Assembly: GCA_016178135.1 (NCBI GenBank)
Contig: JACOTW010000002.1
Coordinates: 77,043-141,042, forward strand
Reading direction: 5' to 3'
From: Candidatus Saccharimonadota bacterium
GTDB taxonomy: Bacteria > Patescibacteriota > Saccharimonadia > Saccharimonadales > JACOTW01
Length of the DNA stretch: 64,000 nucleotides
How positions within the stretch are numbered: position 1 is the stretch's first letter; every line of letters begins with the position of its first letter. Shown piece by piece: positions 3,851 to 53,308 of this stretch. Position numbers and translations under genes: made by a program. Below the pieces are notes generated by a model that saw nothing but the letters and a program-made list of their open reading frames with translations, was not told the origin of the DNA and ran no database searches.

Positions 3851-3954
3851 AACGCGTGAATGTTTCAGCAAATCTTGGTGGAGCTATACAACACAGCTCG
3901 AACCCATTTTCTCACAAAAAGCTGAGATAGCGAGAGCTAAATGGCGAATGGAAG

Positions 3955-4154
3955 CCCGACTGCGACCCCACGCCAAGTGAAATACTACCAAGCCCCACCG
4001 TTTGCCAGCCGAAGGCTGACCGCCCCAGCAGCCCTGGCCTTTGATTTTTTGGATTTACCCCCGCCAATTCCGAATTTTTTATATGGAAAAGTCCAGGTCT
4101 GCTGGTGCGCTGCCCGAGACGGGCAGAAACGGCGTGGCTTTTGCTGGCGGTAGC
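3955..4154. repeat. GC-rich repeat, family E, copy E1
   Basis: Shares 'GGCCTTTGATT..TTTTTGATTTCCCCGCC' and the terminus GCTACCGCCAGCA(R)AAGCC with 6200-6345. The ends are inverted: 4131-4154 is the reverse complement of the 6200 start. The 70-aa ORF 3941-4153 is read-through of this repeat. Confidence 0.6.
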
Positions 4155-4179
4155 CCCAAGAGCCTATATACTTATATGT

Positions 4180-4908
4180 ATGGCTATGTATATTGATGAG
4201 GGTTTTTGGCGAAAGGCGTTAGGCAAGCCAGATTGGTATTTGCTTTTATCTGACGATTTTAAGCGACTTGAAAAACTTGCTGAAGCAGAAAAAGACCCGA
4301 CTGTCCGCAAACGAATAAAAAGTGAGGCGTACGAAATGGTGGAAAGTGCAGTACGAGAAGAACGACTTCCTGTAGCAAAGTCCGGGGATAATTTTGATAA
4401 GGAACGTAAGCCTATCGATACAATCATTATCCATCACACAAAAAATCAACCAGGAATGACGCTTGAGCGACTTAACGCTATGCACTTACTACGAATATAT
4501 GGGATGTATTTTGCCAGTCCTACTGCTTCGAACGAACAGCACCTTAAGGGTCAACCAGTTTGGTCGGGGCATTTTTATAACGGTCAGCAAGTATTCTGGG
4601 GCTACCATTGGTTAGTAAGAGAAGATGGGACTACAGTGCAAATACTCAAAGATAAGTATGTTGGCTGGCATGCTGGTAACTGGGATATTAACACGCGTAG
4701 TATTGGTATTTGTATTGACAATGATCTCAGCGAAACAGAACCACGTGATAGTGTTATCAACGCAGTAGCTGAGATTATTCGTAAGCATTATCCAAAAATG
4801 CCCCCAAATCGAGTGCTTGGACACAAAGATGTCAATGATAAAACCGAATGCCCAGGCTCTTTATTTTCAAATGTTTGGAAACAAAAACTACTAGAACAGA
4901 TAACGTAA
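4180..4908 (+). CDS. N-acetylmuramoyl-L-alanine amidase (Amidase_2 / PGRP fold)
   Basis: 'IIIHHTKN', 'GWHAGNWDINTRSIGICID' and 'VLGHKDVNDKTECPG' match type-2 amidase zinc and substrate motifs. The ATG at 4180 lies 7 nt after TATACT. Confidence 0.8.
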   Translation: MAMYIDEGFWRKALGKPDWYLLLSDDFKRLEKLAEAEKDPTVRKRIKSEAYEMVESAVREERLPVAKSGDNFDKERKPIDTIIIHHTKNQPGMTLERLNAMHLLRIYGMYFASPTASNEQHLKGQPVWSGHFYNGQQVFWGYHWLVREDGTTVQILKDKYVGWHAGNWDINTRSIGICIDNDLSETEPRDSVINAVAEIIRKHYPKMPPNRVLGHKDVNDKTECPGSLFSNVWKQKLLEQIT

Positions 4909-4962
4909 ACATTTGCTATTTTATTGTAAATTATGCTATAATACACTAGATAGGAGGCACTT

Positions 4963-5589
4963 ATGGCAGAGGTTAAGTTATATCGTCCTGAAGAATTAGA
5001 GCATGATGAATGGAGACAACTTCAATCTATTGAGAGAGATGCTTTTGTAAGTACATTGGATAGAACTCAGGCTGAAATTGATGCATTAATTGAATGGGAT
5101 GACCCTGCCCACTTCACGGCTTCGCATGTTGACCCGAATACTGAAGTCGGTAAGCGCTATAACGCTAATCAGTCATATTCTCATTCACGAGTTGCAGTTG
5201 CTACAAAAAATCGCGAACCAATCGGGTTTGCCTACAGTGCTCATAATGTGTCCGGTGGCTCCGAACAGAATCGTTTAGTAAAAAGACTGACTGTTGTCAA
5301 AAATTACCTGTGGCTACGTGAAGTTGCTGTGAAACCAGAGCACCAAAGACAAGGTTTGGCTAGAGAACTTGGTAGGACACTGTTAAAAGATGCTATTGGA
5401 TTGCAGCCAGTAGCTGCCTATGTTTGGCCTGACGAAGACCCTGATTTTCTGCAAGGTACGCTAGAAAGACTTGGTTTTTCGCCGACTGGTGAGCAGCAGG
5501 TCAAAGTATTTGGCGAAAATAGTGAACCAATTAGACAGGTACGAATGCAAGCACCATCAGCTCGTGCTGTCTTAAGGAATTTAGGTTAA
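4963..5589 (+). CDS. GNAT-family N-acetyltransferase
   Basis: Acetyl-CoA binding motif A 'REVAVKPEHQRQGLARELGRTLL'. A strong SD (TAGGAGG) lies upstream of the ATG. Confidence 0.7.
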   Translation: MAEVKLYRPEELEHDEWRQLQSIERDAFVSTLDRTQAEIDALIEWDDPAHFTASHVDPNTEVGKRYNANQSYSHSRVAVATKNREPIGFAYSAHNVSGGSEQNRLVKRLTVVKNYLWLREVAVKPEHQRQGLARELGRTLLKDAIGLQPVAAYVWPDEDPDFLQGTLERLGFSPTGEQQVKVFGENSEPIRQVRMQAPSARAVLRNLG

Positions 5590-5608
5590 TAATTACAAGG
5601 CAATAGCT

Positions 5609-6199
5609 ATGGAACGAGGCGAGATATTAAATAAAGTACAGAGGCTTCCGTTAAATATCGTACGTGGCGTTCAAGAGGCGTTACAACGTCGCGTGGATCG
5701 CAAGTACGGCACTTTAGCCGAAAGACAAGCTACTTATTCGCACTTGTACAAGCGGTGTGAGGAACTTTTTACTGTTCATGCGGCTAAAGTAGGTACTCTG
5801 CAGGGTTATGCTAACCAAGGAGCCTACCAAAGACTTATACTTGATGGTATGCCTGGGGTGCATGAACTTATAATTGACAGGGATATAGGCGGCAACGATG
5901 AATTCCATTTGGTTGGTATGAATACGACAATGGGTTCATTTGAAAATCCGGTCATTTATGACCGCCAAATTCTGACAGTTACTCCGGAAACCGGCATTTT
6001 TCAGACGTCACATAGCGAAACACACTATCCGCCAAACTTTAATCCCCTTGATAACGTGCCCTACTACAAAGATACTGAGACCAAAGTACGACCATTAGCC
6101 GCTCCTGTTGCCCAAAGATGGGCAGAACAGATTAACCCTAATTTATCCCCAATTGATAATCACATTTTGATGAGCAGTGCTACTTTTGAAAACCAATAA
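5609..6199 (+). CDS. Hypothetical protein
   Basis: 196-aa ORF in an operon-like position after the GNAT gene. I recognise no motif. Confidence 0.45.
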   Translation: MERGEILNKVQRLPLNIVRGVQEALQRRVDRKYGTLAERQATYSHLYKRCEELFTVHAAKVGTLQGYANQGAYQRLILDGMPGVHELIIDRDIGGNDEFHLVGMNTTMGSFENPVIYDRQILTVTPETGIFQTSHSETHYPPNFNPLDNVPYYKDTETKVRPLAAPVAQRWAEQINPNLSPIDNHILMSSATFENQ

Positions 6200-6345
6200 G
6201 CTACCGCCAGCAGAAGCCCCGCCGCCTGTTCCAGCAAAGCTGTAATGCGCCCCGCCAGAAAAAACCGGCCTTTGATTCATTTTTTGATTTCCCCGCCGAG
6301 ATTTTTTAAAACAATATGGAAGAGGTCGGATTTTTCTGTCAGTTC
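6200..6345. repeat. GC-rich repeat, family E, copy E2 (truncated)
   Basis: Starts GCTACCGCCAGCAGAAGCCCCGCCGCCTGTTCCAGCAAAGCTGTAA. It shares blocks with 3955-4154 and, inverted, with 7556-7640. Confidence 0.6.
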
Positions 6346-6349
6346 GCCC

Positions 6350-6967
6350 CTAGCTTGTGAGTATTTTGACGGCTTCGCCAATGCTTTGTTGGAAATTGTC
6401 TCCAATAGTTATGACAGGCAAATTGTATTTCTTCGCCTCATCAAAGTAATATTTGTTCAATTCGAGATTAAAGATACAGAAAGCTCGGATGATTTCATCA
6501 TCATATTTGTGCAACCAGTCGAAAGTATTTTCATGCGCATGGCGCAATATTGTCTCGGTTTGGTCATGCAGATTAGCAATAAACACGACCTTGTACTCAA
6601 ACGGCAGTTCAGCAGTAAAGTTGTGTGGCAGAACCGCGACACCCTCTATTCCAATATCCTGACCATCCTCGACGTTAGATTTTGCGAAATCGAGCACCGA
6701 TTTCCATACAACTTCTGACTCACGATTTTGGTGGTCTACGACAACCGCTGGCTTATTTTGCATGTTTGTTACATTTTCCGGGGAATCAAACTTGCCCCTG
6801 GCAATTTTGAATAGGTCTTGATTACCATCAGCCTCTAGTACGCCACGTATGGTGTAACGTATCGCATCCGAAGAAGCAGCCAGGACAGACCTTTGTTTTA
6901 CAAATTCCTTGAGTGCAGTTGTCTTTCCTGCTCTCGGCGCACCGCCTATAAAATATGCTTTGGTCAT
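6350..6967 (-). CDS. P-loop NTPase / small-molecule kinase-like protein
   Basis: Walker A 'GGAPRAGKTT' at the N-terminus of a 205-aa protein. The family is not resolved. Confidence 0.55.
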   Translation of the reverse strand: MTKAYFIGGAPRAGKTTALKEFVKQRSVLAASSDAIRYTIRGVLEADGNQDLFKIARGKFDSPENVTNMQNKPAVVVDHQNRESEVVWKSVLDFAKSNVEDGQDIGIEGVAVLPHNFTAELPFEYKVVFIANLHDQTETILRHAHENTFDWLHKYDDEIIRAFCIFNLELNKYYFDEAKKYNLPVITIGDNFQQSIGEAVKILTS

Positions 6968-6971
6968 ATTT

Positions 6972-7526
6972 TTAGTTTATACTTTCTGGATCAATCATAA
7001 GTTCAAGTTTCATATTTTGGAACAGCAGGTCTCCGTCACTGTATGGTTCGCCTAAGTTTTCGAAACCCAACTTTGATAACAGATGTTCAGAGCCTATATT
7101 AGTGGTGATATACCGTGAGTACACGGTTTTCTCGCCACCATCCTTTAGATAATCTATAACTGAACTAACTGAAGCGAGTCCTACGCCTTTTCCGCGCATA
7201 TCCGGATCGCCAATCATTACGTGGACTGATGGACTTGCTAGAAAATCGCTAGCTTCTAAATCCACCCAGACGGAGCCTACAACTTTACCCCGGTATTCAA
7301 TCATCCAATTCAACTGGTCTTGTCTGGTTAAGAAATCGTTTACTCGTTCTTTTTCTTCATCGAGCGTTGTTGGTTTGTTATGCTCATCGGCTACGCCCAT
7401 AAGTTGTAGTGTGGCGCGTCCCATATCGCCCTCAAGCCATTTGACACCATTTAACGCATCACGTTCAATGTCAGGTTCAACGAGTTTCAAATCAGGATTG
7501 TTTGTTTCGAGCGTAACTATTTTCAT
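6972..7526 (-). CDS. GNAT-family N-acetyltransferase
   Basis: 'GDPDMRGKGVGLASVSSVIDYL' is a GNAT motif A. The ORF track starts at 7553, but that ATG lies in a hairpin of repeat E3. The ATG at 7526 sits 9 nt after TATAAT. Confidence 0.6.
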   Translation of the reverse strand: MKIVTLETNNPDLKLVEPDIERDALNGVKWLEGDMGRATLQLMGVADEHNKPTTLDEEKERVNDFLTRQDQLNWMIEYRGKVVGSVWVDLEASDFLASPSVHVMIGDPDMRGKGVGLASVSSVIDYLKDGGEKTVYSRYITTNIGSEHLLSKLGFENLGEPYSDGDLLFQNMKLELMIDPESIN

Positions 7527-7555
7527 ATGGGAGTTATTATAACAGGTTTCCAACC

Positions 7556-7640
7556 TGTTATTCCTTGTTCTGCGAAGCCTCGGGGCACGTTACAGCTTTG
7601 CTGGAACAGGCGGTGGGGCTTGTGCTTTTCAGCAGTTTTT
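7556..7640. repeat. GC-rich repeat, family E, copy E3 (partial, inverted)
   Basis: Its reverse complement reads AAGCCCCACCGCCTGTTCCAGCAAAGCTGTAACGTGCCCCG, matching 6214-6255. Confidence 0.6.
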
Positions 7641-7643
7641 TCT

Positions 7644-7720
7644 TGGTGGGCGATGCAGGATTTGAACCTGCCACCTCCGCAACGTCAATGCGGCGCTCTA
7701 GCCAAATGAGCTAATCGCCC
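7644..7720 (-). tRNA. tRNA-Val (anticodon GAC)
   Basis: The reverse complement folds as a cloverleaf: GGGCGAT TA GCTC ATTTGGCT AGAGC G CCGCA TTGACGT TGCGG AGGTG GCAGG TTCAAAT CCTGC ATCGCCC ACCA. CCA is encoded. Confidence 0.9.
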
Positions 7721-7727: not shown

Positions 7728-7931
7728 ACTGGATCTGTTGCAAAACTCCTCCATCCCCAGATCGAATTCTATCGGCTACTCTTCGAGTCTGAGCCTGAGG
7801 GCTCACCTCAGAGTCGAAAACAAACAGTTTTTCTTCTTTCGATGTAGCTAAGGCTACCTCTCCTTCAGACAAAACAGTTTTCGCTCGAGATAATTCACTC
7901 TGGGAACGGACGATTTTGCGACAGGTCCAGT
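7728..7931. mobile_element. Family A element A2 carrying a nested ~42-bp palindrome
   Basis: A-type termini with AG/AG flanks. The extra segment TCTTCGAGTCTGAGCCTGAGGGCTCACCTCAGAGTCGAAAA (~7789-7830) is absent from other copies and is itself a hairpin. Confidence 0.8.
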
Positions 7932-8392: not shown

Positions 8393-10240
8393 ATGATAGA
8401 ACATCATAATGACGGTCTTAGCGTGATGCGACATAGTTTGGCGCATATTATGGCGACTACTATTCAGCACATCTGGCCTAATGCTAAGTTTGGAGTGGGT
8501 CCAGTTGTCGAGAATGGTTTTTATTATGATGTTGATTTAGGTGAAACCAAGATATCTGACAATGATTTTCAGCGCATAGAAACTGAAATGAAAAAAATAA
8601 TTGACCTAGATCAGCCTTTTAATCGAACCGAAAAGCTCATAGAAGAAGCCATTGAATGGGCGAAAAATACCGAACAACCTTATAAAGCGGAACTTTTGAA
8701 TGATTTGAAGAGGGCTGGCACTACGGTGGCTAAAGATCTGGATATTGCAGAGCTTGGGACTATTGTTGAGGGTGATGCCAAAGTAGAAACGGTATCATTT
8801 TATACAAATGGTGATTTTACTGATTTGTGTAGAGGTCCGCATGTGGTATCTACCGGTAAGGTTGGGGTGTTTAAGTTAATGAGGGTGAGTGGGGCATATT
8901 GGCGTGGTAACGAAAATAACGCTCAAATGCAACGTATTTACGGCGTGGCTTTTGCTACAAAAGAAGAACTAGTGCATCACCTGGAGATGCTAGAAGAGGC
9001 CAAGAAGCGTGATCATCGCAAACTTGGTCAAGAATTGGATTTGTTTGTTTTTTCAGATATGGTTGGATCCGGACTGCCTATGTTTACTCCACAAGGCACG
9101 ATTCTGCGCGATCAACTTGCATGTTTTTCAAATGAGTTAAGAGAGGCCTATGGTTATCAGAAGGTTTGGGTGCCTCACATGACTAAACGGGATCTATATG
9201 AAGCATCAGGACACTGGGCTAAATTTGGTGACGAGCTATTTATGGTTAAAAGCCAAGAAACTTCCGACGAACTAGTGCTTAAGCCTATGAATTGTCCTCA
9301 TCATACGCGTATCTATGCTAATAAACAGCGAAGTTATCGTGATTTACCCGTGCGATATTTAGAAACAACTACTGTTTATAGAGACGAAAAAACTGGTGAA
9401 CTCGGCGGTCTTAGTAGGGTGCGTTCAATTACGCAAGATGATAGTCATGCTTTTTGTCGTGAAGATCAGATAGAAGATGAAATTAATAATCTATTGAGTG
9501 CGGCTCAAGTGTTGTACTCAACCATAGATATGAAGCTCAAAGTGAGATTATCTTATCGTGGCGATGGTGATACTTATCTAGGGGATGAAAAATTATGGAA
9601 ATCCGCACAAGAGCAACTTAAAAGGGCTATTTTATCCAATAAATTAGATTATTTTGAGGCTGAAGGTGAAGCGGCTTTTTATGGTCCGAAAATTGATTTT
9701 ATGGCTACGGACGCAATTGGTCGCGAGCATCAGGTCGCCACGGTACAATTGGATTTTGTGATGCCCGAGCGATTTAAATTAGAATATGTGGCCGAAGACG
9801 GCAGCCTAAAAACACCTATAATGATCCACTCGGCATTACTGGGTTCCATAGAAAGATTCCTCTCCGTTTACATAGAACACACTGCGGGGCGATTCCCAAT
9901 CTGGTTAGCACCCGAGCAGTTGAGGCTTATAACTGTTAATCAGGAAGAAAAAACCATACAATTTGCAAACTCTGTATTAGAAAAAGCAAAAGAATACGAC
10001 ATCAGAGCGACCATTGATAACGGTAATGAATCTGTTGGTAAGAAAATTCGTTCGGCTGAAGTATGGAAGGTTCCATATAGTATTGTAATTGGTGAAAAGG
10101 AAATTGAATCTGGTATGGTAACGCCGCGTATCCGTAGTGATATGACGGTGGCTAATGAGCATAGTGAGCACGAAATTGAAAATTTCTTTCGTACAATTGC
10201 TAACGAAGCTAAGTCTCGTATCAATAAATCATCACTTTAA
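8393..10240 (+). CDS. thrS: Threonyl-tRNA synthetase (no N-terminal TGS domain)
   Basis: 615 aa. It shows a second-additional/editing-domain start 'MRHSLAHIMA', class II motifs ('LKPMNCPHH', 'RVRSITQDDSHAF', 'YGPKIDF') and a C-terminal anticodon-binding domain. Confidence 0.9.
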   Translation: MIEHHNDGLSVMRHSLAHIMATTIQHIWPNAKFGVGPVVENGFYYDVDLGETKISDNDFQRIETEMKKIIDLDQPFNRTEKLIEEAIEWAKNTEQPYKAELLNDLKRAGTTVAKDLDIAELGTIVEGDAKVETVSFYTNGDFTDLCRGPHVVSTGKVGVFKLMRVSGAYWRGNENNAQMQRIYGVAFATKEELVHHLEMLEEAKKRDHRKLGQELDLFVFSDMVGSGLPMFTPQGTILRDQLACFSNELREAYGYQKVWVPHMTKRDLYEASGHWAKFGDELFMVKSQETSDELVLKPMNCPHHTRIYANKQRSYRDLPVRYLETTTVYRDEKTGELGGLSRVRSITQDDSHAFCREDQIEDEINNLLSAAQVLYSTIDMKLKVRLSYRGDGDTYLGDEKLWKSAQEQLKRAILSNKLDYFEAEGEAAFYGPKIDFMATDAIGREHQVATVQLDFVMPERFKLEYVAEDGSLKTPIMIHSALLGSIERFLSVYIEHTAGRFPIWLAPEQLRLITVNQEEKTIQFANSVLEKAKEYDIRATIDNGNESVGKKIRSAEVWKVPYSIVIGEKEIESGMVTPRIRSDMTVANEHSEHEIENFFRTIANEAKSRINKSSL

Positions 10241-10269
10241 TTATGACAGTCTGAAAAGATTGGTAAGTT

Positions 10270-11322
10270 ATGAAATATAATCTACTGGACTTACGCAAAG
10301 CTCCCTCATCCCCAGACCAACTAACCTCGGCTGCAAACAGTTTTTCCTCTCTCGATGTACCTTCAGGTACCTCTCCTTCAGATAAAACTGTTTTCGCTCG
10401 AGCTGATTTGCCCTGGGAACGAGGGATTTTGCGTAAGTCCAGTCCACTCGACTTACACAAAATCGTCCGTTCCCAGAGTGAATTGCCCGAAACACCAGTT
10501 GCGCGAAAGACTCCATCTGTTAAATACAGCTCGGAGCCCATATTATCTAATTCTGCGCATTTCTTAGTGATTGTAGGGCCAACGGCTAGCGGAAAAAGTG
10601 CGTTAGCGATGGAGCTAGCTCAAAAATTAAATGGCGAAATAATCTGCGCTGATTCACGAACTGTATACAAGTATTTAGATATTGGTACCGCTAAACCTAC
10701 CAAAAAAGACAGAAAACAAGTGCCACATCATCTTTTGGATGTAGTTAATCCCGACCAGAACTTTACGGTTGCAGATTTTAAGTTACTGGCCAATGAGGCC
10801 ATAGATAACATACAAAAACGAGGGAGATTACCTATTATGGTTGGTGGTAGCGGACTATATATTGATGCTGTACTGTTTGATTATCAATTTGCAGCTGAAG
10901 GCATGCCACGTAATCCGATCAACCCGAGACATCTTATGCAAAAAAGGTCACGCCAGTTACAGGTATTACGCTCGAACACTCTTATTATTGGTTTGGATGT
11001 ACCTCGAGACATCCTAAAACAAAGAATTACGGATCGTGTACAAGACATGGTTGCGGTTGGTTTTATCGAAGAAGTACAACATCTTATGAAAATATATCCC
11101 GAAAGCAAAGCCTTACTAGCCCCAGGCTACAAGGCTTTTAGTGAATATATTAATGGTAATCTTAGTATCGAAGATGCCGAGGCCTTATTTATTAAAAATG
11201 ACTACCAATTAGTAAGGCGCCAGATGACATGGTTTAAGCGCAATAAAAGTATTCATTGGATAAATAACCCCAGTAATTCTGTAGAAATTATCACAACGTT
11301 TTTGAGTAAAACAATAGTTTGA
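10270..11322 (+). CDS. miaA: tRNA dimethylallyltransferase whose only in-frame ATG lies upstream of a family A repeat
   Basis: MiaA core from 'LVIVGPTASGKSALAMELA' onward, with 'DSRTVYKYLDIGTAKP' and 'LPIMVGGSGLY'. The first ~95 codons are translated repeat A3 plus a partial copy. An in-frame GTG at ~10567 is an alternative start. Confidence 0.8.
   Translation: MKYNLLDLRKAPSSPDQLTSAANSFSSLDVPSGTSPSDKTVFARADLPWERGILRKSSPLDLHKIVRSQSELPETPVARKTPSVKYSSEPILSNSAHFLVIVGPTASGKSALAMELAQKLNGEIICADSRTVYKYLDIGTAKPTKKDRKQVPHHLLDVVNPDQNFTVADFKLLANEAIDNIQKRGRLPIMVGGSGLYIDAVLFDYQFAAEGMPRNPINPRHLMQKRSRQLQVLRSNTLIIGLDVPRDILKQRITDRVQDMVAVGFIEEVQHLMKIYPESKALLAPGYKAFSEYINGNLSIEDAEALFIKNDYQLVRRQMTWFKRNKSIHWINNPSNSVEIITTFLSKTIV
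10284..10443. mobile_element. Family A element A3 (full), followed by a ~45-bp partial copy at 10446-10490
   Basis: ACTGGACTTACGCAAAG ... TTTTGCGTAAGTCCAGT. It lies inside the annotated miaA ORF, in the same frame and orientation as the copies in priA and the ROK kinase. Confidence 0.85.
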
Positions 11323-11350
11323 TTTATCGTCTGTCTGTTACAATGGGATC

Positions 11351-11977
11351 ATGATTGAGCAATTGTTTGGGTCAAAGACAAGGGTTAAGCTGTTAAGGCT
11401 TTTTTATAGCAACCCAAACAGATCATTTTATGTTCGTGAGATAACGCGGAAAATTGACGAACAAATCAACTCCGTTAGGCGAGAGCTGGCAAATCTATTG
11501 AGTATTGGGATTATTTCTTCAGACAATACAAATAATCGACTGTACTATGAAGTTAACCAGTCCTATGAATTCCATAAACCTTTAACGGTGATTTTTGGAG
11601 CCACCAGTATGTCCAAATCAAGTGTACCAGCTATTGCTAATGCGGAAACCAAGGACTTTAAAGCTCTTGGTAATGTGGATTTGGTTGTTTATACGGGACA
11701 GTTTACGCGTGATGAAACTGCTGGCATCGACTTTTTGGTAGTTGGCGACGTGAACCATACAAAACTAAATAAGTTTATTGCCGAGCTTGAAACCAAAGAA
11801 GGTAAAGAGATTCGCTATACTGCTATGTCTCTAGCTGAATTTAAGTATCGCAAACAGGTTAATGATCGGTTTTTGTCTAATGTCATGGATGCTAAAAAGC
11901 AGGTGATATACGATAGGCATTTTATATTAACCTCAAAACCAGAAAAGCTGGACAGCAAGAAAGTAGATAAGGAGTAA
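11351..11977 (+). CDS. Winged-helix (ArsR/MarR-like) DNA-binding domain protein
   Basis: The N-terminal 'KTRVKLLRLFYSNPNRSFYVREITRKIDEQINSVRRELANLLSIGII' looks like a wHTH. The C-terminal domain is unknown. A paralogous short form is at 53403-53693. Confidence 0.55.
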   Translation: MIEQLFGSKTRVKLLRLFYSNPNRSFYVREITRKIDEQINSVRRELANLLSIGIISSDNTNNRLYYEVNQSYEFHKPLTVIFGATSMSKSSVPAIANAETKDFKALGNVDLVVYTGQFTRDETAGIDFLVVGDVNHTKLNKFIAELETKEGKEIRYTAMSLAEFKYRKQVNDRFLSNVMDAKKQVIYDRHFILTSKPEKLDSKKVDKE

Positions 11978-11981
11978 TATT

Positions 11982-12608
11982 ATGGAACTACAGTTTTATG
12001 GAGCTAATTGTTTGCGTGTCGTAACCAAGAAGGCCGTGGTTACGATTGATGATAATCTGACAGATTTGGGCCTCAAGTCCGTAACAAAAAATGGAGACAT
12101 TGTTTTGTTCACCGGTTTACACGGTGATGTGCTGGCGGGGCCTAAAATAGTTATTGATCAGCCAGGCGAGTATGAGGTTTCGGATATGTCTATAAAAGGC
12201 GTGGCTGCTCGTGGGCACATTGAAGAAAATGATCGGCATGGTACTACGCTTTTTCGTTTGATTGTGGACGGAGTTAGAATTGTTATTACGGGCCATGTAT
12301 ATCCTGAATTAACAGATGAACAACTTGAGGCGCTAGGTACTGTTGATATTTTATGTATTCCTGTTGGCGGGAATGGATATACGCTTGATCCAACAGGGGC
12401 ATTAAAAATTATCAAAAAGATTGGACCCAAAATTATAATCCCGACCCATTATTTTGATGCTACAATTAAATATCCAGTTTCTCAAGTCAGTTTAGAAGAA
12501 GCAATAAAAGAATTGTCCATAGAGCCTAGCGAAACAGTAGATAAACTTAAATTGAAGGTTACAGAACTAGACGAGGCCACACGTTTAGTTATACTTGAGC
12601 GTCAATGA
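11982..12608 (+). CDS. MBL-fold metal-dependent hydrolase (UPF0173-like)
   Basis: 208 aa with the beta-lactamase-fold pattern 'LQFYGANCLRV...', 'ITGHVYPE', 'PVGGNGYTLD' and 'IIIPTHY'. SD AAGGAG is upstream. Confidence 0.6.
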   Translation: MELQFYGANCLRVVTKKAVVTIDDNLTDLGLKSVTKNGDIVLFTGLHGDVLAGPKIVIDQPGEYEVSDMSIKGVAARGHIEENDRHGTTLFRLIVDGVRIVITGHVYPELTDEQLEALGTVDILCIPVGGNGYTLDPTGALKIIKKIGPKIIIPTHYFDATIKYPVSQVSLEEAIKELSIEPSETVDKLKLKVTELDEATRLVILERQ

Positions 12609-12613: not shown

Positions 12614-12802
12614 CTATAAAAGACCTTTTTTCTTGAGTGTACGGATAGCTTGTGTACTAATTTTTAGAGTAATCTTCTTGCCATCAACGACAATGGTTTT
12701 GTTTTGTAAATTAGGCTTCCAAACTTTTTTGGTATGACGTTGTGAAAAGCTGACATTACTGCCATATTGTTTGCCTTTGCCGGTTAGATCACATACTTGC
12801 AT
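12614..12802 (-). CDS. rpmB: 50S ribosomal protein L28
   Basis: 'MQVCDLTGKGKQYGSNVSFSQRHTKKVWKPNLQ' is the canonical L28 N-terminus. The start is taken at the internal Met of the tracked ORF. Confidence 0.85.
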   Translation of the reverse strand: MQVCDLTGKGKQYGSNVSFSQRHTKKVWKPNLQNKTIVVDGKKITLKISTQAIRTLKKKGLL

Positions 12803-12938
12803 GGATGATATTGTATCTGTTTTGTCTCTGTAAGTCAATTAATCGATCTCATTCAAAATAAATCTAACCCAAGCCCCATTCGTTCTGTCGTAATAATCTA
12901 ACCTAAATAGCCATACTTGTTTCTGGAGGAAACGGAGT

Positions 12939-13758
12939 ATGGCTATGACTAATATTAACAGTCGTTATGAATATTTACGGGAGGCTCAAGTACTTTACTG
13001 GCGAGCTAAAAAGAGACGCAACCGCCGGAAGCTAACAGCTATTCTGGATGACGCGGTAGAGATAACTGGATTTAACCGTAAGTATCTAATTACTAAGCTT
13101 CGCAAAAGGCTTAAGCCATACCCCACAGGGCGTACTCGATCCGACCCTCGGGGACGCAAAGACATCTACGGTTCAACAGAGTTTCATGACGCTTTGCTGA
13201 CCTGTTGGCGGGCTGCCAATGAGATTTGTGCCGAACGGTTACAGCCATATTTACCTGAGCTGGTGCCGAAACTTGCACTGTGCGGCGAGTTATAGGTTAG
13301 TGACATCACCAAGGAATTGCTGTTAGCCGCCAGCATATCCACTATTGCCAGGCGGCTGGCTCGGGTCAAACGGCGCAGTCACGTGCACCAAGCCGGGTAC
13401 ACTGCTCAAAAGCCAGATACCGGTTCGTAAAGGCCTCTGGAATGAAACCAAGCCTGGCTATCTGGAAAGTGATACGGTTGCACACTGTGGCGGAGATTTA
13501 TCCGGTAGTTTCATCCATAGCTACAACTTCGTAGATATTGCTACTAGCTGGAGCGAGCAGTCCGTGGCCATGGGCATGGGAGAGAAGGCCACTGTTGAGT
13601 GCTTCGAGAAGATCCGTGGCCGGGTACCGTTCAAGGTACTCGGCATCGATTCCGACAATGGTGGTGAGTACATTAACCACCACCTGTGGCGGTACTGTCG
13701 GAAAAACAAGCTTGAGTTTACCCGTTCCCGTCCTGGCAAGAAGAACGGATATGGATGA
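12939..13758 (+). pseudogene. Decayed DDE (rve / integrase-core) transposase in two frames, truncated
   Basis: ORF1 is an HTH-like N-terminus. ORF2 'ESDTVAHCGGDLSGSFIHSYNFVDIATSWSE...LGIDSDNGGEYIN...TRSRPGKKN' is an rve core that stops just after RPxKKN, where an 18-bp hairpin (ACGGATATG..CATATCCGT) interrupts it. The region is visibly more GC-rich than its surroundings. Confidence 0.7.
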
Positions 13759-14168: not shown

Positions 14169-14858
14169 ATGAGTGCAGACACAGGAGAGGGTGCGGTTAG
14201 TAGATACGAAGCAATTTTGTCAGCAGAACACAGTGCAGAAACAAAAGAAAGGTATCAAAAAGAGGCAGAGTTTTTAGCATTTTATGAACACTTGTTGGTG
14301 TTGGGACGCAATAAAGAAGTTGAACCCAATTTGATTAAAGGCCGTACCACGATTTCTGTACCTGCCTTTTTTGTCCTTGAAGGACATGGGACTAATCCTG
14401 TTAATAGAGCGGCTCTTGGATTACTCCCTACTTATTCATATTTCAAGGGCTACGGCGATAATGTGGAAACGCGCGTTGATGAGCCAGGATTGCGTCAAGT
14501 TCTAGCTTTGCCCGAGAATGAACTACAAGCCGCTAGAAAGGGTAAGGCTATACAGTTTATCGTAGCAAGTACCCTAGGATTACTTGACCCAGTTGCTAAA
14601 AAAACACTTCAAGAAGCTAGCCGTTCTTCTCGCAGTGGTTGGAGTGACGATACAAAACGTTCGCAGGATATTGGTGAGCTTGTTCGTAATGTCCCCAGTG
14701 ATCTTAATGAAATTGTTGTAAGTGAAGTAAGTGACATAGCAACTATGGTAGAACGAAAGGGTTATACGGACTTCCTAGATTACTTAGTTGACGCAAGGCA
14801 AATAATAGCAGATAGAGTTGCTACAATTTTTGCTCACGAAGCACCCGTTACAGAGTAG
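14169..14858 (+). CDS. Hypothetical protein (orphan, bracketed by palindromic sites)
   Basis: 229-aa ORF with SD AAGGAAGGG upstream. I recognise no motif. Confidence 0.5.
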   Translation: MSADTGEGAVSRYEAILSAEHSAETKERYQKEAEFLAFYEHLLVLGRNKEVEPNLIKGRTTISVPAFFVLEGHGTNPVNRAALGLLPTYSYFKGYGDNVETRVDEPGLRQVLALPENELQAARKGKAIQFIVASTLGLLDPVAKKTLQEASRSSRSGWSDDTKRSQDIGELVRNVPSDLNEIVVSEVSDIATMVERKGYTDFLDYLVDARQIIADRVATIFAHEAPVTE

Positions 14859-15356
14859 TTAATGGTTTTGTCAGGATCTAGAGGACTGTCCTCTTAAGCC
14901 TTAAGCTTCTGAAACACTTCCCAGGTTACTGGCTGCTGGCCGACTATTTGTTCTTCAATAAAATTTAGACCGCTGGCAGATAAACACCCCACTGCTTTGA
15001 ATGGACCCCCATGTTCCAGGCTTACAGAGTGCTCTGGGGATTGCATGAGTTTCATCGAACTGGAATGGGTGTGGTTGACCATTGGGCTGTTCTGGGATGA
15101 AGTGGCTGCTCTCCGTAGGAGCATTTCCCAATTGGTTACTGTGAGTCAACACTACGCGAATGAAGTCCCCACCAGCTTTGCTACAATCCGAATACAACAA
15201 TCTAAACCCAGTACAATTACTGGCTGAGATTAGATCTTTACTAACCGAACTGGAAACAACCTTGGGTTAGGTTTTATTGTGAATGATTACGTTAGTTGTG
15301 GAGGTTCTGTTTTTAGGTGTTGGCGACAAAGCGCAAAAGTCCTATATAATAAAGGT

Positions 15357-15983: not shown

Positions 15984-16144
15984 ACTGGACTTACGCAAAA
16001 TCGTCCGTTCCCAGAGTGAATTATCTCGAGCGAAAACTGTTTTATCTGAAGGAGAGGTAGCCATAGCTACATCGAGAGAAGAAAAACCGTTTGTAGCCGA
16101 TAGAATTTGATCTGGGGATGGAGGAGTTTTGCGACAGGTCCAGT
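15984..16144. mobile_element. Family A element A4 (full)
   Basis: 161 bp, ACTGGACTTACGCAAAATCG ... TTTTGCGACAGGTCCAGT. It begins 9 nt after the M50 stop codon. Confidence 0.85.
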
Positions 16145-16209
16145 TAAGCAGTTTTTAGCCCTGTAGGATTGGTTTGGGGTAGTGAAAAAATGCAAAAGTC
16201 CTATATACT

Positions 16210-16378: not shown

Positions 16379-16431
16379 TTGGTCGGCACTCGTTTTTAGT
16401 TTTTTGACATATCTACAGATACATCTTCTTT

Positions 16432-16517
16432 ACTCGACTTACGCAAAATCGCCCGTCCCCAGAGTGAATCAGCTCGAGCAGATAGTGGTTTGACTGAAGG
16501 AGAGGTAGCCTTAGCTA
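16432..16517. mobile_element. Family A half-copy (A5), ending at its central TA
   Basis: ACTCGACTTACGCAAAATCGCCCG...GAGGTAGCCTTAGCTA is followed directly by a family B terminus. Confidence 0.75.
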
Positions 16518-16653
16518 TAGTCCCCGCAAAACAAATTCGTGGGTTTTTGAAGCAATGATCTTTGAGCCAAAAACTGACTTTTCCGAGAGAGACATATCCT
16601 TAGATACGTTGAACGAGGAAAGGCGGTTTTGGGCCAAAGAGGGTGATTCGAAA
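16518..16653. mobile_element. Family B (beta subtype) element, right end missing
   Basis: TAGTCCCCGCAAAACAAATTCGTGGG...GGTGATTCGAAA. It matches 37633-37796 over its whole length. Confidence 0.8.
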
Positions 16654-16863: not shown

Positions 16864-17529
16864 ATGTGGCAAGAAAAAAACGGCGAATTATATCAAAAAT
16901 TTGAATTTAAAGATTTCCAGGATGCTTTTTTATTTATGCAAGTGGTGGCTACTGAAGCCGAAAAGCAACATCATCATCCTCGTTGGTGTAATGATTGGAA
17001 TGTAGTAGAGATATGGTTAAGTACGCATGAAGCTGGTCATGAAGTTACGGATAAGGATTGGTCGCTAGCGGAGAAAATCACCGAATTGTTCGATGGTCAG
17101 CAAATGTCTGCAGATGATTCAGTTATAAAATATGAAAAAATAAAGCTTTATGCCGATGGTGGCTCCAGGGGTAATCCTGGCCCTTCTGCTTCGGGCTATG
17201 TTTTGATGGATCTAAATGACAATGTTATATTCAGGACCGGCATTTATCTAGGTGTTACGACGAATAATCAAGCGGAATATAAGGCACTTAAATTTGGTCT
17301 AGAAAAAGCTCAAAAAATGCTAGTGCAAGAAGTAAATGTTTTCTTGGACAGTCTTTTAGTTGTGAATCAAATGAAAGGTACTTTTAAGATTAAAAATAAA
17401 GATCTTTTGCCAATTTATGATGCCATTCAAGAACTTCTAGGACATTTTCGAAAGGTTACTTTTACTCATGTCCCAAGAGCACTTAACAAGCTTGCCGACG
17501 CTGAAGTCAATAAGGTACTTGATCTATAG
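16864..17529 (+). CDS. Fusion protein: pterin-4a-carbinolamine dehydratase-like domain plus RNase H (type 1) domain
   Basis: The N-terminus 'FKDFQDAFLFMQVVATEAEKQHHHPRWCNDWNVVEIWLSTH' carries the PCD signature. The C-terminus 'LYADGGSRGNPGPSASGYVL...NNQAEYKALKFGLEKA...DSLLVVNQM...LNKLADAEVN' is an RNase H fold. Confidence 0.7.
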   Translation: MWQEKNGELYQKFEFKDFQDAFLFMQVVATEAEKQHHHPRWCNDWNVVEIWLSTHEAGHEVTDKDWSLAEKITELFDGQQMSADDSVIKYEKIKLYADGGSRGNPGPSASGYVLMDLNDNVIFRTGIYLGVTTNNQAEYKALKFGLEKAQKMLVQEVNVFLDSLLVVNQMKGTFKIKNKDLLPIYDAIQELLGHFRKVTFTHVPRALNKLADAEVNKVLDL

Positions 17530-17689
17530 CCATCCCAAAACAAAATGACCATTTTTGTCTGCGCCTGATGATCTAAAAACTACTTTTTTGTCTGTAGCAT
17601 ATCTACGGATATGCTTTAGCCAAAGAAAGCTAGTTTTTAGACTCATCATCCATCACTCAAAATTTGGTCATTTTGTTTTGGAATGGCTA
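17527..17689. mobile_element. MITE-like element, family C, copy C1
   Basis: TIRs TAGCCATCCCAAAACAAAATGACCA / TGGTCATTTTGTTTTGGAATGGCTA with TA on both flanks. Its first 3 nt (TAG) are the stop codon of the preceding gene. An inverted copy is at 22738-22900. Confidence 0.85.
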
Positions 17690-17761
17690 TACTATAGGCA
17701 TCAAACTCTGACTTGCCCCGATCCTGTACCCGTAAGCAGCACTAGTCGGCTTTTTTGCTAA

Positions 17762-24200: not shown

Positions 24201-24274
24201 AAAATAATGTTTCATGGCATAGTCTTGCTTTAGCCAAAACTTATGTCTACGAAAAAGTGTGAAAGTCCTATATA

Positions 24275-24437
24275 TAGCCCCCGCAAAACAAATTCACGGC
24301 TTTTTGAACCGCCCTCTCCGGCCAAAAACTGTCTTTCCTCATTCACCTTATCTAATGATATGCTTCCCTCGGAAAAGCCAGTTTTTGACTCGAAGATCAT
24401 CGGCTCCAAAACCCCCGAATTTGTTTTGCGGGGGCTA
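24275..24437. mobile_element. Family B (alpha) element, full copy B2
   Basis: Same TIRs as B1 and TA flanks. It is immediately followed by family D copy D3. Confidence 0.85.
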
Positions 24438-27920: not shown

Positions 27921-27933
27921 GCAGTTCACTTAA

Positions 27934-30096
<2,163 letters not shown>

Positions 30097-33299: not shown

Positions 33300-33346
<47 letters not shown>

Positions 33347-34254: not shown

Positions 34255-34290
<36 letters not shown>

Positions 34291-44599: not shown

Positions 44600-45563
44600 G
44601 ACTATCCCTTATTAATTCATAACAACCATATATTACAGCTTCTTCTGGCCGTTGTGCTTGTAGAATAGGAGGCATAGAAATTAATGGCATCTTGTATTTT
44701 TTTAGTTCGTTAACTAAAAAATCAGCAAATCTATCATAATAAGATGCCACCCCACCACCTAGAATTACTACTTCTGGCTCAAATAGTGATATGAAATTAA
44801 TAAGTCCTACGGATAAGTCTCTGGCAATAATCTGCCAAATTTTAGGATCTTCTATTTCGCTCGCTCTCTTGCCAAAACGTCTTACGATTGCTTTGCCTGA
44901 AGCAAAATTTTCCCATAACTCCATAGCTCCATCGTGCTCAACTAGCAATCCTTTGCCACCACTATCTCCTAATGATAAATCAATTACTCCACTTGTTACC
45001 AGGGCAGCCCCTATACCGGTTCCTATGGTTATGTATAGTACTTTATCGTAGTCTTGCTTAACAAGAATCGCTTCAGATAGGGCTCCTAGTTTTGCATCGT
45101 TTTCTACGGCAACAGGACACTTAACAATTTTTTCTAGATCAGATTGAATAAATTTATTTTTCCAGTTTAGATTCCCGCTACTTTTAAGTTTGCCTTGCTC
45201 TCTATCTAAGACACACGGGATACCTACACCGGCCCCCAGAAAACTATTAGTCTGTAGAACAGATATACTTGACTTACGCAAAATCGCCCGTTCCCAGGCT
45301 AAATCAGCTCGAGTTGGGAGTGGTTTGGCTGAAGGAGAGGTAGCCATAGCTACATCGAGAGAAGACAGACTGCTACCAGCCGAGATGAATTGGTCTGGGG
45401 ATGGGGGAGCTTTGCGTAAGTCCAGTATATTACTCCCCAGTTCTATTAAAAAATCATCATAGTTCTTGATCGTAGGGAATCGTAGTTTTTTTATTATATT
45501 ACCCATATCATCAAAAGAGGCAACAAGTGTTTTTGTCCCTCCAACATCTACAGCCAAATACAT
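44583..45563 (-). CDS. ROK-family sugar kinase (glucokinase-like) interrupted in frame by a family A repeat
   Basis: 'MYLAVDVGGTKT', 'GAGVGIPC', 'ENDAKLGALSE', 'ITIGTGIGAAL' and 'ILGGGV'. Residues ~46-99 ('ILDLRKAPPSPDQFISAGSSLSSLDVAMATSPSAKPLPTRADLAWERAILRKSSI') are the translated repeat A12. Confidence 0.85.
   Translation of the reverse strand: MYLAVDVGGTKTLVASFDDMGNIIKKLRFPTIKNYDDFLIELGSNILDLRKAPPSPDQFISAGSSLSSLDVAMATSPSAKPLPTRADLAWERAILRKSSISVLQTNSFLGAGVGIPCVLDREQGKLKSSGNLNWKNKFIQSDLEKIVKCPVAVENDAKLGALSEAILVKQDYDKVLYITIGTGIGAALVTSGVIDLSLGDSGGKGLLVEHDGAMELWENFASGKAIVRRFGKRASEIEDPKIWQIIARDLSVGLINFISLFEPEVVILGGGVASYYDRFADFLVNELKKYKMPLISMPPILQAQRPEEAVIYGCYELIRDSHAKST
45267..45426. mobile_element. 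Family A element A12 (full) inside the ROK kinase ORF
   Basis: 160 bp with AT/AT flanks. The internal ~125 bp differ at one position from the intergenic copy at 48627-48788, which is inverted. Confidence 0.9.
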
Positions 45564-51190: not shown

Positions 51191-53308
51191 TAACAGGGTA
51201 GCGGGAAGACTTTTGATAATTTCAAGCAATTTCCCTCGACTTCTTGATTTCACTATCAATTGCCAATGATATTTGCCTTGTTGTTTTTCATGAAATGCCG
51301 GTGATGGTCCGATGATTGATAGAGATAATTGTTTTTGCTGGAGTTCTAATAGTAATTTTTCCGAGGCTTTTTTAGCAGATTGCTGGGTGGCACGTTTGCA
51401 AGATAGTTTGAGAAGATAACAGAAGGGAGGGAATATGAAAATTTCACGTTCATGCAACTGTTGTTTATAAAATTCTTCATAATTTTTAGTTATTGCAGCG
51501 TTAATGATCGGGCTTTCTGGATGATATGTTTGTATTATCAACATACCTTTAAGGTGTCCGCGCCCTACTCGACCACTGACTTGGCTGATCATCTGAAATG
51601 TTTTTTCTTCAGCGGTATAATCTGGAATATATAAGCCGGTATCAGCCACAACTATGCCCACTAAACTTAATCGAGTCAAATCAAGGCCTTTTGAGAGTAT
51701 TTGTGTCCCGACCAATATATCTACGGCTCCACTTTCTATAGTTTCGTAATGCATTTCTAGCCGATCGGCCTTAAGATTGTCGCCGTCAAACCTTTGCACC
51801 CTTGCCTCGGGCAGTAGTCTTTTTATTTCGGCAACAATAAGTTTTGTGCCTATGCTCTTGAAGATAACTTCAGTACCGTGACAGTTTGGGCAATTAGATG
51901 GAGTTTGTTCGCTATGACCGCACGTATGGCATAAAGCCAAATGAGTATCACCATGATAGGTAAGTGGAAGGTCGCAACGTGGACAAAGTAGCTGCCAGCC
52001 ACAACTTTGACACAATATTATTCGTGCCGTACCCCGTCTATTTAAGAAAAGCAAAGACTGTTCCTTGTTTTGTAGGCGTAAGCGCATTTCTTTTATAAGA
52101 TCATCGGATAGCCATTTTGATTGTGAAAAATGAGCCTTATCTTGTAGTGCTATTAATTTGGTGACGGAGCCTGCTTCATTAGACTTATGCAAAATTGTTT
52201 GTTCCTGGGGCGAATCAGCTCGAGCGAAAACTGTTTTGTCTGAAGTAGAGGTACCTGAAGGCACATCGAGAGAAGAAAAACTGGTTGTAGGCGAGGTTAT
52301 TCGATCTGGGGATGGGAGAGCTTTGTTTAAGTCCAGTTTAGCGGTCTCTGTGGCTGCTCTTGTCATGCGGACGATTGGCAGTCCCTTCGCCTTAAAGGTG
52401 AAGTAGTCATTGATTAGGGGGGTAGCGGAGCCAAGTACTAGTCGCGCACCTTCTAATTGGGCTAAACGTGCTGCAACTCGTGTTGTTTGATAGTTGGGGG
52501 CTTGTTCTTGCTTGTATGCTGTGTCATGAGCCTCGTCTACCACAATAAGTCCTATGTTTGACAAAGGGGTGAACAATGCCGATCGAGGTCCAACTACCAC
52601 TAGTGGCTCCTCGGCCTCCAGAATCTTTAACCAGGCATCACGCCTTTGTGCCGAGGTTAGCGCGGAATGTATACCGATAATTTGATCAGGAAATGCTACT
52701 TCCAGCATTTTTATTAGTTGAGGCGTAAGACCGATTTCGGGTGTTAATATGAGTACTGAACGACCATTTTGAATCTGTTCTTTTGCTAATTCAATATATA
52801 CCCTGGTTTTGCCTGTGCCGGTATCGCCATGCAGCAATATGGGTTCTTGTTTTTTTGATGCTTGTATTTGTTGTAGTGCAGATTGCTGATCAGGCGTAAG
52901 CGTTGGGAGCTTTTTTTCAGGGGGTGGAGGAGTTTCGGGTAAGTCGTCGAGTATAGGGATTTTGCTTGGGCCCGGTGTCGGTCTAGCTTGTTGCTGGATG
53001 CCACTCGGTAAAAATAATTGTATCAAGACCCCAGAAGGAGCTGGATAATAAGATCTAAGCCACCCAAAAAGCTTAAACACCGAAGAAGGCACAGGATTTT
53101 TACCTATTTGCTTCAATATAGATTGAGTTTTAAAAGCTGGCTTTTTAACTTGAGCATTAACGATACCAAGTACTACTTGTCGCCGTAGACCTACAGTAAC
53201 AACAGAGCCATTTTCTATCGATATGTCGCTTTCGTAAATCAGAGGCTTATCACCATGATATCTAGGGCTACTTATCCAAACTTCGTAGTACGACTTTATT
53301 GTAGGCAT
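51188..53308 (-). CDS. priA: Primosomal protein N' (replication restart helicase PriA) interrupted in frame by a family A repeat
   Basis: 'LLHGDTGTGKT', 'VVDEAHD' and a Cys-rich zinc module 'CQSCGWQLLCPRCDLPLTYH...CHTCGH...CPNCHG', then 'GTQILSKGLD' and 'QVSGRVGRG'. The segment 'LDLNKALPSPDRITSPTTSFSSLDVPSGTSTSDKTVFARADSPQEQTILHKSN' is the translated repeat A13. Confidence 0.9.
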   Translation of the reverse strand: MPTIKSYYEVWISSPRYHGDKPLIYESDISIENGSVVTVGLRRQVVLGIVNAQVKKPAFKTQSILKQIGKNPVPSSVFKLFGWLRSYYPAPSGVLIQLFLPSGIQQQARPTPGPSKIPILDDLPETPPPPEKKLPTLTPDQQSALQQIQASKKQEPILLHGDTGTGKTRVYIELAKEQIQNGRSVLILTPEIGLTPQLIKMLEVAFPDQIIGIHSALTSAQRRDAWLKILEAEEPLVVVGPRSALFTPLSNIGLIVVDEAHDTAYKQEQAPNYQTTRVAARLAQLEGARLVLGSATPLINDYFTFKAKGLPIVRMTRAATETAKLDLNKALPSPDRITSPTTSFSSLDVPSGTSTSDKTVFARADSPQEQTILHKSNEAGSVTKLIALQDKAHFSQSKWLSDDLIKEMRLRLQNKEQSLLFLNRRGTARIILCQSCGWQLLCPRCDLPLTYHGDTHLALCHTCGHSEQTPSNCPNCHGTEVIFKSIGTKLIVAEIKRLLPEARVQRFDGDNLKADRLEMHYETIESGAVDILVGTQILSKGLDLTRLSLVGIVVADTGLYIPDYTAEEKTFQMISQVSGRVGRGHLKGMLIIQTYHPESPIINAAITKNYEEFYKQQLHEREIFIFPPFCYLLKLSCKRATQQSAKKASEKLLLELQQKQLSLSIIGPSPAFHEKQQGKYHWQLIVKSRSRGKLLEIIKSLPATLL
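52178..52337. mobile_element. Family A element A13 (full, diverged) inside the priA ORF
   Basis: ATTAGACTTATGCAAAATTG...GGGATGGGAGAGCTTTGTTTAAGTCCAGT. It is colinear with A1 and A4. Confidence 0.85.

Follow-up and report, generated by a model that had tools for sequence, protein, structure and literature searches.

In-frame mobile repeats in genes are best known from Rickettsia. The present analysis concerns a repeat of comparable design, here called family A, in a 64-kb stretch of DNA (64,000 nt of contig JACOTW010000002.1 from a Candidatus Saccharimonadota bacterium, hereafter the window), and in particular the copy at the 5' end of miaA, the gene for tRNA dimethylallyltransferase. For this copy we favor, with somewhat better than even confidence, an in-frame insertion of a miniature inverted-repeat transposable element (MITE) that resembles a Rickettsia palindromic element (RPE), with translation starting at ATG 10270 and running through the element.

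RPEs (Ogata et al. 2000, Science 290:347; summarized in the review of MITEs PMC10969869) and the family-A element are both palindromic repeats of ~100-160 nt, dispersed in the reduced genome of a host-dependent bacterium and present in frame within unrelated conserved genes (here priA, a ROK kinase gene and miaA, and others in public data). Both carry a conserved open frame for a hydrophilic peptide, in an insert of a length that keeps the reading frame. The RPE hosts are Alphaproteobacteria, whereas the family-A element resides in Saccharibacteria, which belong to the candidate phyla radiation. Unlike RPEs, the family-A element has clear 16-nt terminal inverted repeats (TIRs) and an apparent 2-bp target duplication, and several of its insertions fall within the first ~5-20 codons, so that it becomes part of the N-terminus. 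Because there is no Rfam match and no evidence of sequence relatedness, we describe the family-A element as one that seems to work like an RPE and not as a member of that group; the likeness is one of design. Transcription of RPE inserts has reportedly been shown experimentally, while translation of the family-A element is predicted from sequence.

As for other bacterial MITEs, Correia/NEMIS (Neisseria), ERIC, BOX, RUP, Coxiella QMITE1 and the Anabaena MITEs (PMC10969869) are, like family A, non-autonomous elements of small size that end in TIRs, fold into hairpins and occur in many copies; they duplicate their target sites, as family A may do too, vary in presence between strains (here seen in sister repeat families) and occasionally give rise to ORF (open reading frame) fusions. 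These families are mainly intergenic and act via promoters, terminators or mRNA processing (PMC10969869), whereas the family-A element uses a consistent coding phase in at least 20 proteins and shows no promoter or terminator signal at the miaA copy. In the literature searched, we found no paper linking Saccharibacteria with MITEs or RPEs.

The family-A element is a MITE, being short, bounded by TIRs and present in many dispersed copies. It measures 160-162 nt, with perfect 16-nt TIRs and ends that are kept in 8 copies, and the window contains 7 full copies of this length, a 204-nt copy and several fragments; repeats of several families together occupy 7.7% of the window. Apparent 2-bp target duplications are present at 5 of the 8 window copies (AT/AT twice, GT/GT, TT/TT and AG/AG), and a GT/GT duplication flanks the copy at a response-regulator locus of the sister strain. 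Since 160 + 2 = 162 nt, each insertion would add 54 codons. There is no transposase gene, and the only open frame of the element is a 53-codon read-through frame without a start of its own. Phase 1, in which element base 1 is the third codon base, runs without a stop through each of the four indel-free copies, the intergenic copy 2325-2484 among them, so that reading through the repeat without a stop is unremarkable in itself. The phase-1 peptide, LDLRKAPxSPD..SFSSLDV..TSPSDKTVFARAD..WER.ILRKSS, is Ser/Pro-rich and hydrophilic. No Rfam family matches the element at the gathering threshold. In the ~39 kb compared, all family-A copies are common to the sister strain; in other repeat families, MITE-sized segments (140-164 nt) are present in one strain only (window 17526-17690, and 16426-16567 and 14697-14861 of the comparison sequences L001 and L083), which points to recent mobility of these families.

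Two family-A copies lie in phase 1 within the ORFs of PriA and a ROK-family kinase (Table 1), with conserved sequence on both sides and ~53-59 extra residues in each case. In structure alignment, PriA residues 321-399 take the place of 20 residues in a solved PriA, and residues 32-123 of the ROK kinase take the place of 38 residues in a solved homolog, with ~53 extra residues between conserved blocks. Both inserts are kept in sister strains, and the priA peptide is identical in three strains; the junction peptide predicted for priA is AATETAKLDLNK. From the intact downstream domains, we infer that the element must be translated within both genes, and it demonstrably can be tolerated inside essential genes such as priA. 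The two sister assemblies also differ from the window at the priA 3' end, where PriA terminates with ...LPATLL (706 aa) here and with ...LPANWTYDIDPTNLL (715 aa) there. This difference (window 51188-51199) results from an 87-nt indel that abuts the B-type repeat 51022-51195, and the PriA C-terminus has therefore been rewritten by a repeat-associated event.

When the peptide profile was run in a word-indexed search, only short 'hypothetical proteins' of this species were retrieved; an exhaustive profile search located the element peptide in 72 representative proteins, and 20 longer ones were retrieved, 10 of them scanned against Pfam. Beyond PriA and the ROK kinase, at least 18 longer proteins carry the peptide, among them FemAB, NUDIX, TatC, CyoD-like, guanylate kinase, HAD and type IV secretion system (T4SS) pilin proteins. 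The genes miaA and priA, the ROK kinase gene and the gene for pilin P0300 all have the element in phase 1, and the other longer proteins were matched by the same-frame profile. In two retrieved proteins the element sits between the n- and h-regions of the signal peptide. In pilin P0300 (sister strain, 654-kb contig), the element separates MNQIIKQITR from LLISCLVILGG...AFA, and since the neighboring paralog starts with the matching MIKIIKKLLMSVS, MNQIIKQITR represents the native N-terminus. The in-frame element thus begins 10 codons past the native ATG, with no later start available, an architecture that, by analogy of layout, is a direct counterpart of the one proposed for miaA.

The miaA ORF encodes a 350-aa protein that is present in the database in exact form (MBI1856839.1 / MBI3337776.1, 'tRNA dimethylallyltransferase [Candidatus Saccharibacteria bacterium]'). 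Its core (10567-11319) is typical of canonical bacterial MiaA (PF01715), with the P-loop GPTASGKS and with thrS upstream as in relatives. The Pfam IPPT match has E = 1.2e-54, and IPPT/IPT/P-loop matches begin only at about residue 99. In a 50-sequence alignment, the 251-aa core retains all columns that are invariant in 49 orthologs, and AlphaFold2 (AF2) modeling with this alignment yields a confident core with pLDDT mostly above 85 from residue ~100, a first strand β1 at Phe98-Val102, and pLDDT below 50 for residues 1-73. The MiaA orthologs in Saccharibacteria are 57-67% identical and 249-285 aa long. The same length range applies to the best 120 homologs, except for the protein of the sister assembly GCA_040960765.1 (P0001), which is 98% identical and likewise 350 aa, and for two outliers (319 and 421 aa) that either are fused to an MGMT-like gene upstream or extend into it. 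The long form is confined to three assemblies of this species, and the protein collection contains no MiaA at identities between 67% and 98%.

The ORF differs from its orthologs in what precedes the core. Among 93 close orthologs, the P-loop glycine lies 8-14 residues from residue 1 in 57 and 17-32 in 33, the interval being below 8 only in one truncated entry and far longer only in the sister 350-aa form and one fused entry. In contrast to the canonical 8-32 residues, the ORF here has 102 residues ahead of the glycine, 67 of which derive from the mobile repeat; the corresponding numbers are 31 from TTG 10483 and 3 from GTG 10567. The frame is bounded upstream by the in-frame TAA 10264-10266, and the full MITE copy begins 14 nt downstream of ATG 10270, with perfect 16-nt TIRs (ACTGGACTTACGCAAA, 10284-10299, and TTTGCGTAAGTCCAGT, 10428-10443) and the flanking dinucleotides CT (left) and CC (right; TC in the sister strain). 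Next comes the remnant of another copy, which matches at 38/39 positions the start of the full copy (its first 39 nt) beside the response-regulator gene in the sister strain. Together, the full copy, a 2-nt spacer and the remnant (160 + 2 + 39 nt) amount to 201 nt, or 67 codons, a multiple of 3, with both copies in phase 1. An earlier sequence-only reading of this locus correctly placed the single in-frame ATG 14 nt ahead of the repeat and noted that no in-frame ATG comes after the repeat; the next methionine is Met114 (ALAMELAQ), within the core. Its estimate of ~95 codons of translated repeat was too high, as 99 extra codons are present in all but only 67 are repeat-derived; the frame is indeed open through both repeat units, but what was described as a 45-bp partial copy measures 39 nt and runs in the opposite orientation.

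The sequence between remnant and core is unique, as is 10241-10283, in that neither region shows hidden repeat homology above shuffled controls. From 10498 onwards, the leader VARKTPSVKY...LSN aligns with long ortholog leaders (MVARTPTTNY..., MVDSKPPNTKYQ...), and the long-leader orthologs MVARTPTTNYELP.. and MVDSKPPNTKYQL.. match VARKTPSVKYSSEP..LSN.. of this MiaA, which means that homology reaches 10498. The core was previously taken to begin with VIVGPTASGKS near 10567; GTG 10567 is indeed the codon of that valine, but Phe98 and Leu99 already belong to β1 and the homology extends further upstream. Because the ortholog methionine position is occupied by CCA (10495-10497), there is no native start downstream of the insert. 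The only canonical in-frame starts (ATG/GTG/TTG) between the full copy and the core are TTG 10483 and GTG 10567, and two more in-frame TTG codons (10408 and 10429) lie within the full copy. The predicted peptides MKYNLLDLR, ADLPWER, SSPLDLHK and IVRSQSELPETPVAR would occur nowhere but in the miaA copy or at its junctions; TVFARADLPWER is an example of a repeat-encoded peptide of the extended frame, and YSSEPILSNSAHFLVIVGPTASGK is an example of a peptide N-terminal to Val100.

Computed excision of 10284-10484 restores one ORF, ATG-AAA-TAT-AAT-CT/G-CCC... (the slash marking the junction; MKYNLPETPVARK..., MKYNLPETPVARKTPSVKY...), preceded by a Shine-Dalgarno (SD)-like GGTAA and starting 29 nt past the thrS stop; the predicted empty-site junction is ATGAAATATAATCT/GCCCGAAACACCAG. 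Since removal of the 201 nt restores one ORF, an in-frame insertion fits the locus at least as well as the earlier proposal that the repeat had replaced the native 5' region and its signals, of which only the missing start at the ortholog methionine position (CCA) stands. Exact-pattern scans of JGI metagenomes for empty-site or related miaA alleles retrieved none. A 300-aa 'MiaA' (P0153, on the Logan contig L082, with response-regulator genes upstream) was evaluated as a natural repeat-poor allele and rejected as a k-mer assembly chimera: the response-regulator locus on the 654-kb contig of the sister strain has a full copy of its own, the first 39 nt of which coincide with the contig junction and have 35 consecutive nt in common with the miaA remnant.

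The initiation signals were compared as the duplex energy of the 20 nt upstream of each start with the 3' tail of the organism's own 16S rRNA, for which the background is -4.4 +/- 2.6 kcal/mol. ATG 10270 has the best initiation signals among the miaA candidates, with -7.2 kcal/mol for a well-placed GGTAA; the value for thrS is -6.8 kcal/mol, while TTG 10483 reaches -4.8 kcal/mol (misplaced) and GTG 10567 -3.4 kcal/mol. No promoter-like or terminator-like site was found in 10100-10700, inside and after the repeat included, and no known RNA family in Rfam overlaps the miaA repeat region. The comparison with miaA upstream regions in relatives, proposed in the sequence-only reading, shows thrS upstream of miaA in 15/15 related Saccharibacteria loci checked, with gaps of 240-1100 nt, and ortholog leaders that match 10498-10566. 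In the closest relative outside the species (CAZWRG010000001.1, 2608-2934 of locus L002), a 108-aa MGMT/ATL-like gene lies between thrS and miaA; this gene is missing here and is fused to MiaA in the database entries P0040 and P0109.

Taken together, the locus can be described as a coding-compatible MITE inserted in frame at the 5' end of miaA, such that a full copy and a remnant now separate an SD-preceded ATG from the leader common to the orthologs. In this model, thrS and miaA would be co-transcribed, and ribosomes would start at ATG 10270 and unwind the element hairpin, as they would need to do in priA and the ROK kinase gene. The predicted product is a 350-aa MiaA, whose first ~73-97 residues would form a disordered, unconstrained tail before an intact P-loop core.

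Table 1. Positions of the miaA 5' region, its neighbors and the family-A copies inside other genes (window coordinates)
Feature	Position	Strand	Basis or remark
thrS (threonyl-tRNA synthetase), stop TAA 10238-10240	8393..10240	+	Pfam tRNA-synt_2b, tRNA_SAD, HGTP_anticodon
SD-like GGTAA, complementary to UUACC of own 16S 3' tail (GGAUUACCUCCUUUCU, 35646-35661)	10262..10266	+	
miaA ORF, 350 aa	10270-11322	+	ORF list, Pfam
Only in-frame ATG upstream of MiaA core, proposed start	10270..10272	+	29 nt past thrS stop
Full 160-nt family-A MITE ('A3' of the sequence-only reading), phase 1, read as LDLRKAPSSPDQLTSAANSFSSLDVPSGTSPSDKTVFARADLPWERGILRKSS	10284..10443	+	
39-nt (13-codon) remnant of second family-A copy, opposite orientation, read as LDLHKIVRSQSE(L)	10446..10484	-	
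In-frame TTG at repeat (TT)/unique (G) junction, alternative start, 279 aa	10483..10485	+	
Unique sequence	10485..10566	+	repeat-homology search
Ortholog-like leader VARKTPSVKYSSEPILSNSAHFL, 23 codons	10498-10566	+	alignment to ortholog N-termini
MiaA catalytic core, V100 (GTG 10567) to stop, with P-loop GPTASGKS	10567..11322	+	Pfam IPPT (PF01715)
Family-A MITE, phase 1, within ROK-family kinase ORF 44583-45563, residues 47-99	45267..45426	-	
Family-A MITE, phase 1, within priA ORF 51188-53308, residues ~324-376	52178..52337	-	

Comparison with the sister strain reveals 20 differences over 4216 aligned nt in the miaA region, 12 of them in 10319-10557, and 1 synonymous change in the MiaA core. 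The 12 differences in the 297-nt extension are distributed over the three codon positions as 3/4/5, with 7 replacement and 5 silent changes, and 11 are transitions. Elsewhere, the strains differ by 0.3-0.4% outside repeats and by ~1% inside repeats, and the divergence is patchy, with no differences in 10609-12608 and 8 nt / 7 aa in a priA linker. Because of this patchiness, and because the 7:5 ratio fits neutral sequence and a weakly constrained peptide alike, the substitution contrast between extension (12/297 nt) and core (1) was rejected as proof of non-coding status. Copy-to-copy gene conversion was rejected as the source of the differences, as derived alleles occur on both lineages and no single donor copy is matched. 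The differences cluster, to 3-6% locally, at 10319-10557, 12673-12842, 16063-16111, 52710-52924 and 56542-56586; such clusters could stem from recombination tracts, from mutation associated with hairpins or from assembly polishing.

Other ORFs in the window also run into repeats, namely ftsA (ORF 56125), gyrB (ORF 27973) and ORF 48581, yet these have conventional starts after the repeats, and in their light chance extension of ORFs into repeats is common here. The annotated 441-aa ftsA ORF starts within the repeat 56047-56205, while ATG 56218 gives the conserved N-terminus MRESLPAHYVGLDIGTS; for ORF 48581, the ATG after the repeat gives MTEPD.... ATG 56218 of ftsA and GTG 28132 of gyrB are the starts predicted by homology. 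As regards gyrB, the B-type repeat 27931-28100 has an ATG-led open frame of its own that lengthens the ORF to 707 aa, and the SD-preceded GTG 28132 is probably the true start. The ftsA ATG is preceded by TATACT, which suggests a leaderless mRNA. Because no conventional start follows its repeat, miaA differs from ftsA and gyrB.

Several observations weigh against translation from ATG 10270. In the strain comparison, the extension shows no protein-level constraint, as would be expected of non-coding DNA and of an unconstrained tail alike, and positions 10319 and 10409, which form a hairpin base pair, have changed jointly (A-U to G-C) with the hairpin energy unchanged; the pair thus seems to keep the hairpin at the cost of two amino-acid changes, although this is suggestive only. 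The MKYNL segment upstream of the element is only putatively native, in that long-leader orthologs start 9 residues later and the scans yielded no empty-site allele. At -72.5 kcal/mol (region z = -6.2), the miaA hairpin is as strong as those of intergenic copies and stronger than those of the two copies that need to be translated (-30.6 and -56.9 kcal/mol). A hairpin 14 nt past the ATG, together with predicted pairing of the SD-like region with the remnant, could hinder initiation. Furthermore, chance extension into repeats is common, as noted for ftsA, gyrB and ORF 48581, and an N-terminus of 102 residues is far beyond the 8-32 range of correctly called orthologs.

If translation does not start at ATG 10270, the two downstream codons have to be considered. 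TTG 10483 arises precisely where repeat and unique sequence meet and was overlooked in the sequence-only reading. A start here would produce a 279-aa MiaA (MPETPVARKTPSVKY..., MPETPVAR...) and reduce the repeat to an untranslated in-frame insertion in the thrS-miaA spacer. The 31 residues before the glycine would lie within the 8-32 range, 4 more than in the long-leader class, the sister strain keeps the codon, the extension ahead of it shows no protein-level constraint in its evolution, and the chance in-frame extensions at ftsA and gyrB offer a precedent. We nevertheless regard this start as unlikely, since TTG is the weakest canonical start codon, its best SD pairing ends 13 nt upstream and does not rise above background, it sits in sequence that pairs with neighboring repeat arms, and the phase-1 placement, the insert length in multiples of 3 and the SD-preceded upstream ATG would all become coincidences. 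GTG 10567, which the sequence-only reading had offered as an alternative to a repeat-derived extension, would give a 251-aa MiaA (MIVGPTASGKS) with everything upstream as 5' untranslated region. It is a legitimate start codon at about the position where the Pfam match begins, and all 12 upstream strain differences look neutral, 5 of them in the unique leader 10486-10557. However, only 3 residues would precede the P-loop glycine, against at least 8 in each of 92 close orthologs of full length, two of the five β1 residues of the AF2 model would be lost, neither an SD sequence (the best pairing being misplaced) nor a promoter-like site is present, a GTG at the same valine is found also in relatives that clearly start upstream, and the in-frame Phe-Leu and leader homology upstream are retained, all of which makes this start improbable. 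Of the two options in the sequence-only reading, the repeat-derived extension is thus the better supported, by its phase, shared with priA and the ROK kinase gene, and by the best SD, albeit with the repeat providing only 67 codons.

The repeat could instead act on RNA, as a stabilizer of the thrS mRNA 3' end or as an RNase III site, with MiaA made from a non-canonical codon such as ATA 10540. The very stable hairpin and the compensatory base-pair change between strains are in line with such a role, the latter being suggestive only (p about 0.1, a rough estimate), and a start at ATA 10540, 3 nt after a GGAG, would leave a leader of typical length (12 residues). Since there is neither a U-tract terminator nor a promoter-like site, and since this GGAG is GGGG in the sister strain and too near the ATA, starts at ATA being very rare, the combination seems slightly less probable still than a start at GTG 10567. 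A further reading is that miaA has lost its start and is not expressed, so that the locus would be a recent pseudogene and the long ORF an annotation artifact of a stop-free repeat. The CCA codon at the ortholog methionine position and the lack of downstream start candidates with good signals agree with this, and agreement between the strains in the core carries no information, as the next 2 kb are identical too, synonymous sites included. On the other hand, the 251-aa core is intact, keeps the residues that are invariant in 49 orthologs and folds confidently in AF2, an SD-preceded in-frame ATG is present, and the same element is tolerated inside essential genes; we therefore find loss of expression very improbable, and the least credible of these readings.

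Some additional features of the window relate to its repeats and mobile sequences. A frameshifted pair of DDE-integrase-like ORFs (12939-13758) is a possible remnant of an autonomous insertion sequence (IS). A 3.76-kb segment (3881-7641, with ORFs 4105-7553) is missing from the 99.5%-identical sister strain; its right boundary adjoins a tRNA gene (7647-7720) and the 204-nt family-A copy (7728-7931), and the segment resembles an island specific to one strain, located where tRNA gene and MITE meet. The promoter-like motif GCAAAAGTCCTATATAAT recurs at 15321-15350, 16180-16209, 24247-24276 and 50971-51000, and also upstream of the ORFs that end at 50824 and 53308. The motif resembles the family-A right end TTTTGCGTAAGTCCAGT and is often located 7-10 nt ahead of an ATG, which suggests leaderless genes. 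In the rRNA region (33296-35661 and 38218-42645), the 16S rRNA has an insertion of ~830 nt near its 3' end (34775-35600) that contains ORFs and an Rfam group-II-intron D1-D4 match (34967-35049), and the 23S rRNA is ~950 nt over-long, with a LAGLIDADG-type ORF (42082-42645).

Because the native start would lie just upstream of the element, the RPE-like reading has the element form the N-terminus of MiaA. That this Saccharibacteria lineage carries RPE-like 'protein-coding palindromes', translated in dozens of proteins and forming the N-terminus at miaA and in some secreted proteins, is a proposition for which we consider the chances evenly balanced. For annotation, the repeats lengthen ORFs artefactually in some cases (ftsA and gyrB) and probably genuinely in others (miaA, priA and the ROK kinase gene), and their copies yield dozens of spurious 'hypothetical proteins'. 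The miaA start decides between a MiaA tail of ~100 residues and an unconventional start. If the proposition is correct, colonization of coding sequence by selfish DNA would have arisen independently in a reduced-genome bacterium of the candidate phyla radiation, and the proteins concerned would be natural examples of essential enzymes that tolerate disordered insertions of 50-100 residues. The case of an episymbiotic member of this radiation suggests that the design, with its frame-preserving length, fixed phase and hydrophilic peptide, recurs in reduced, host-dependent genomes.

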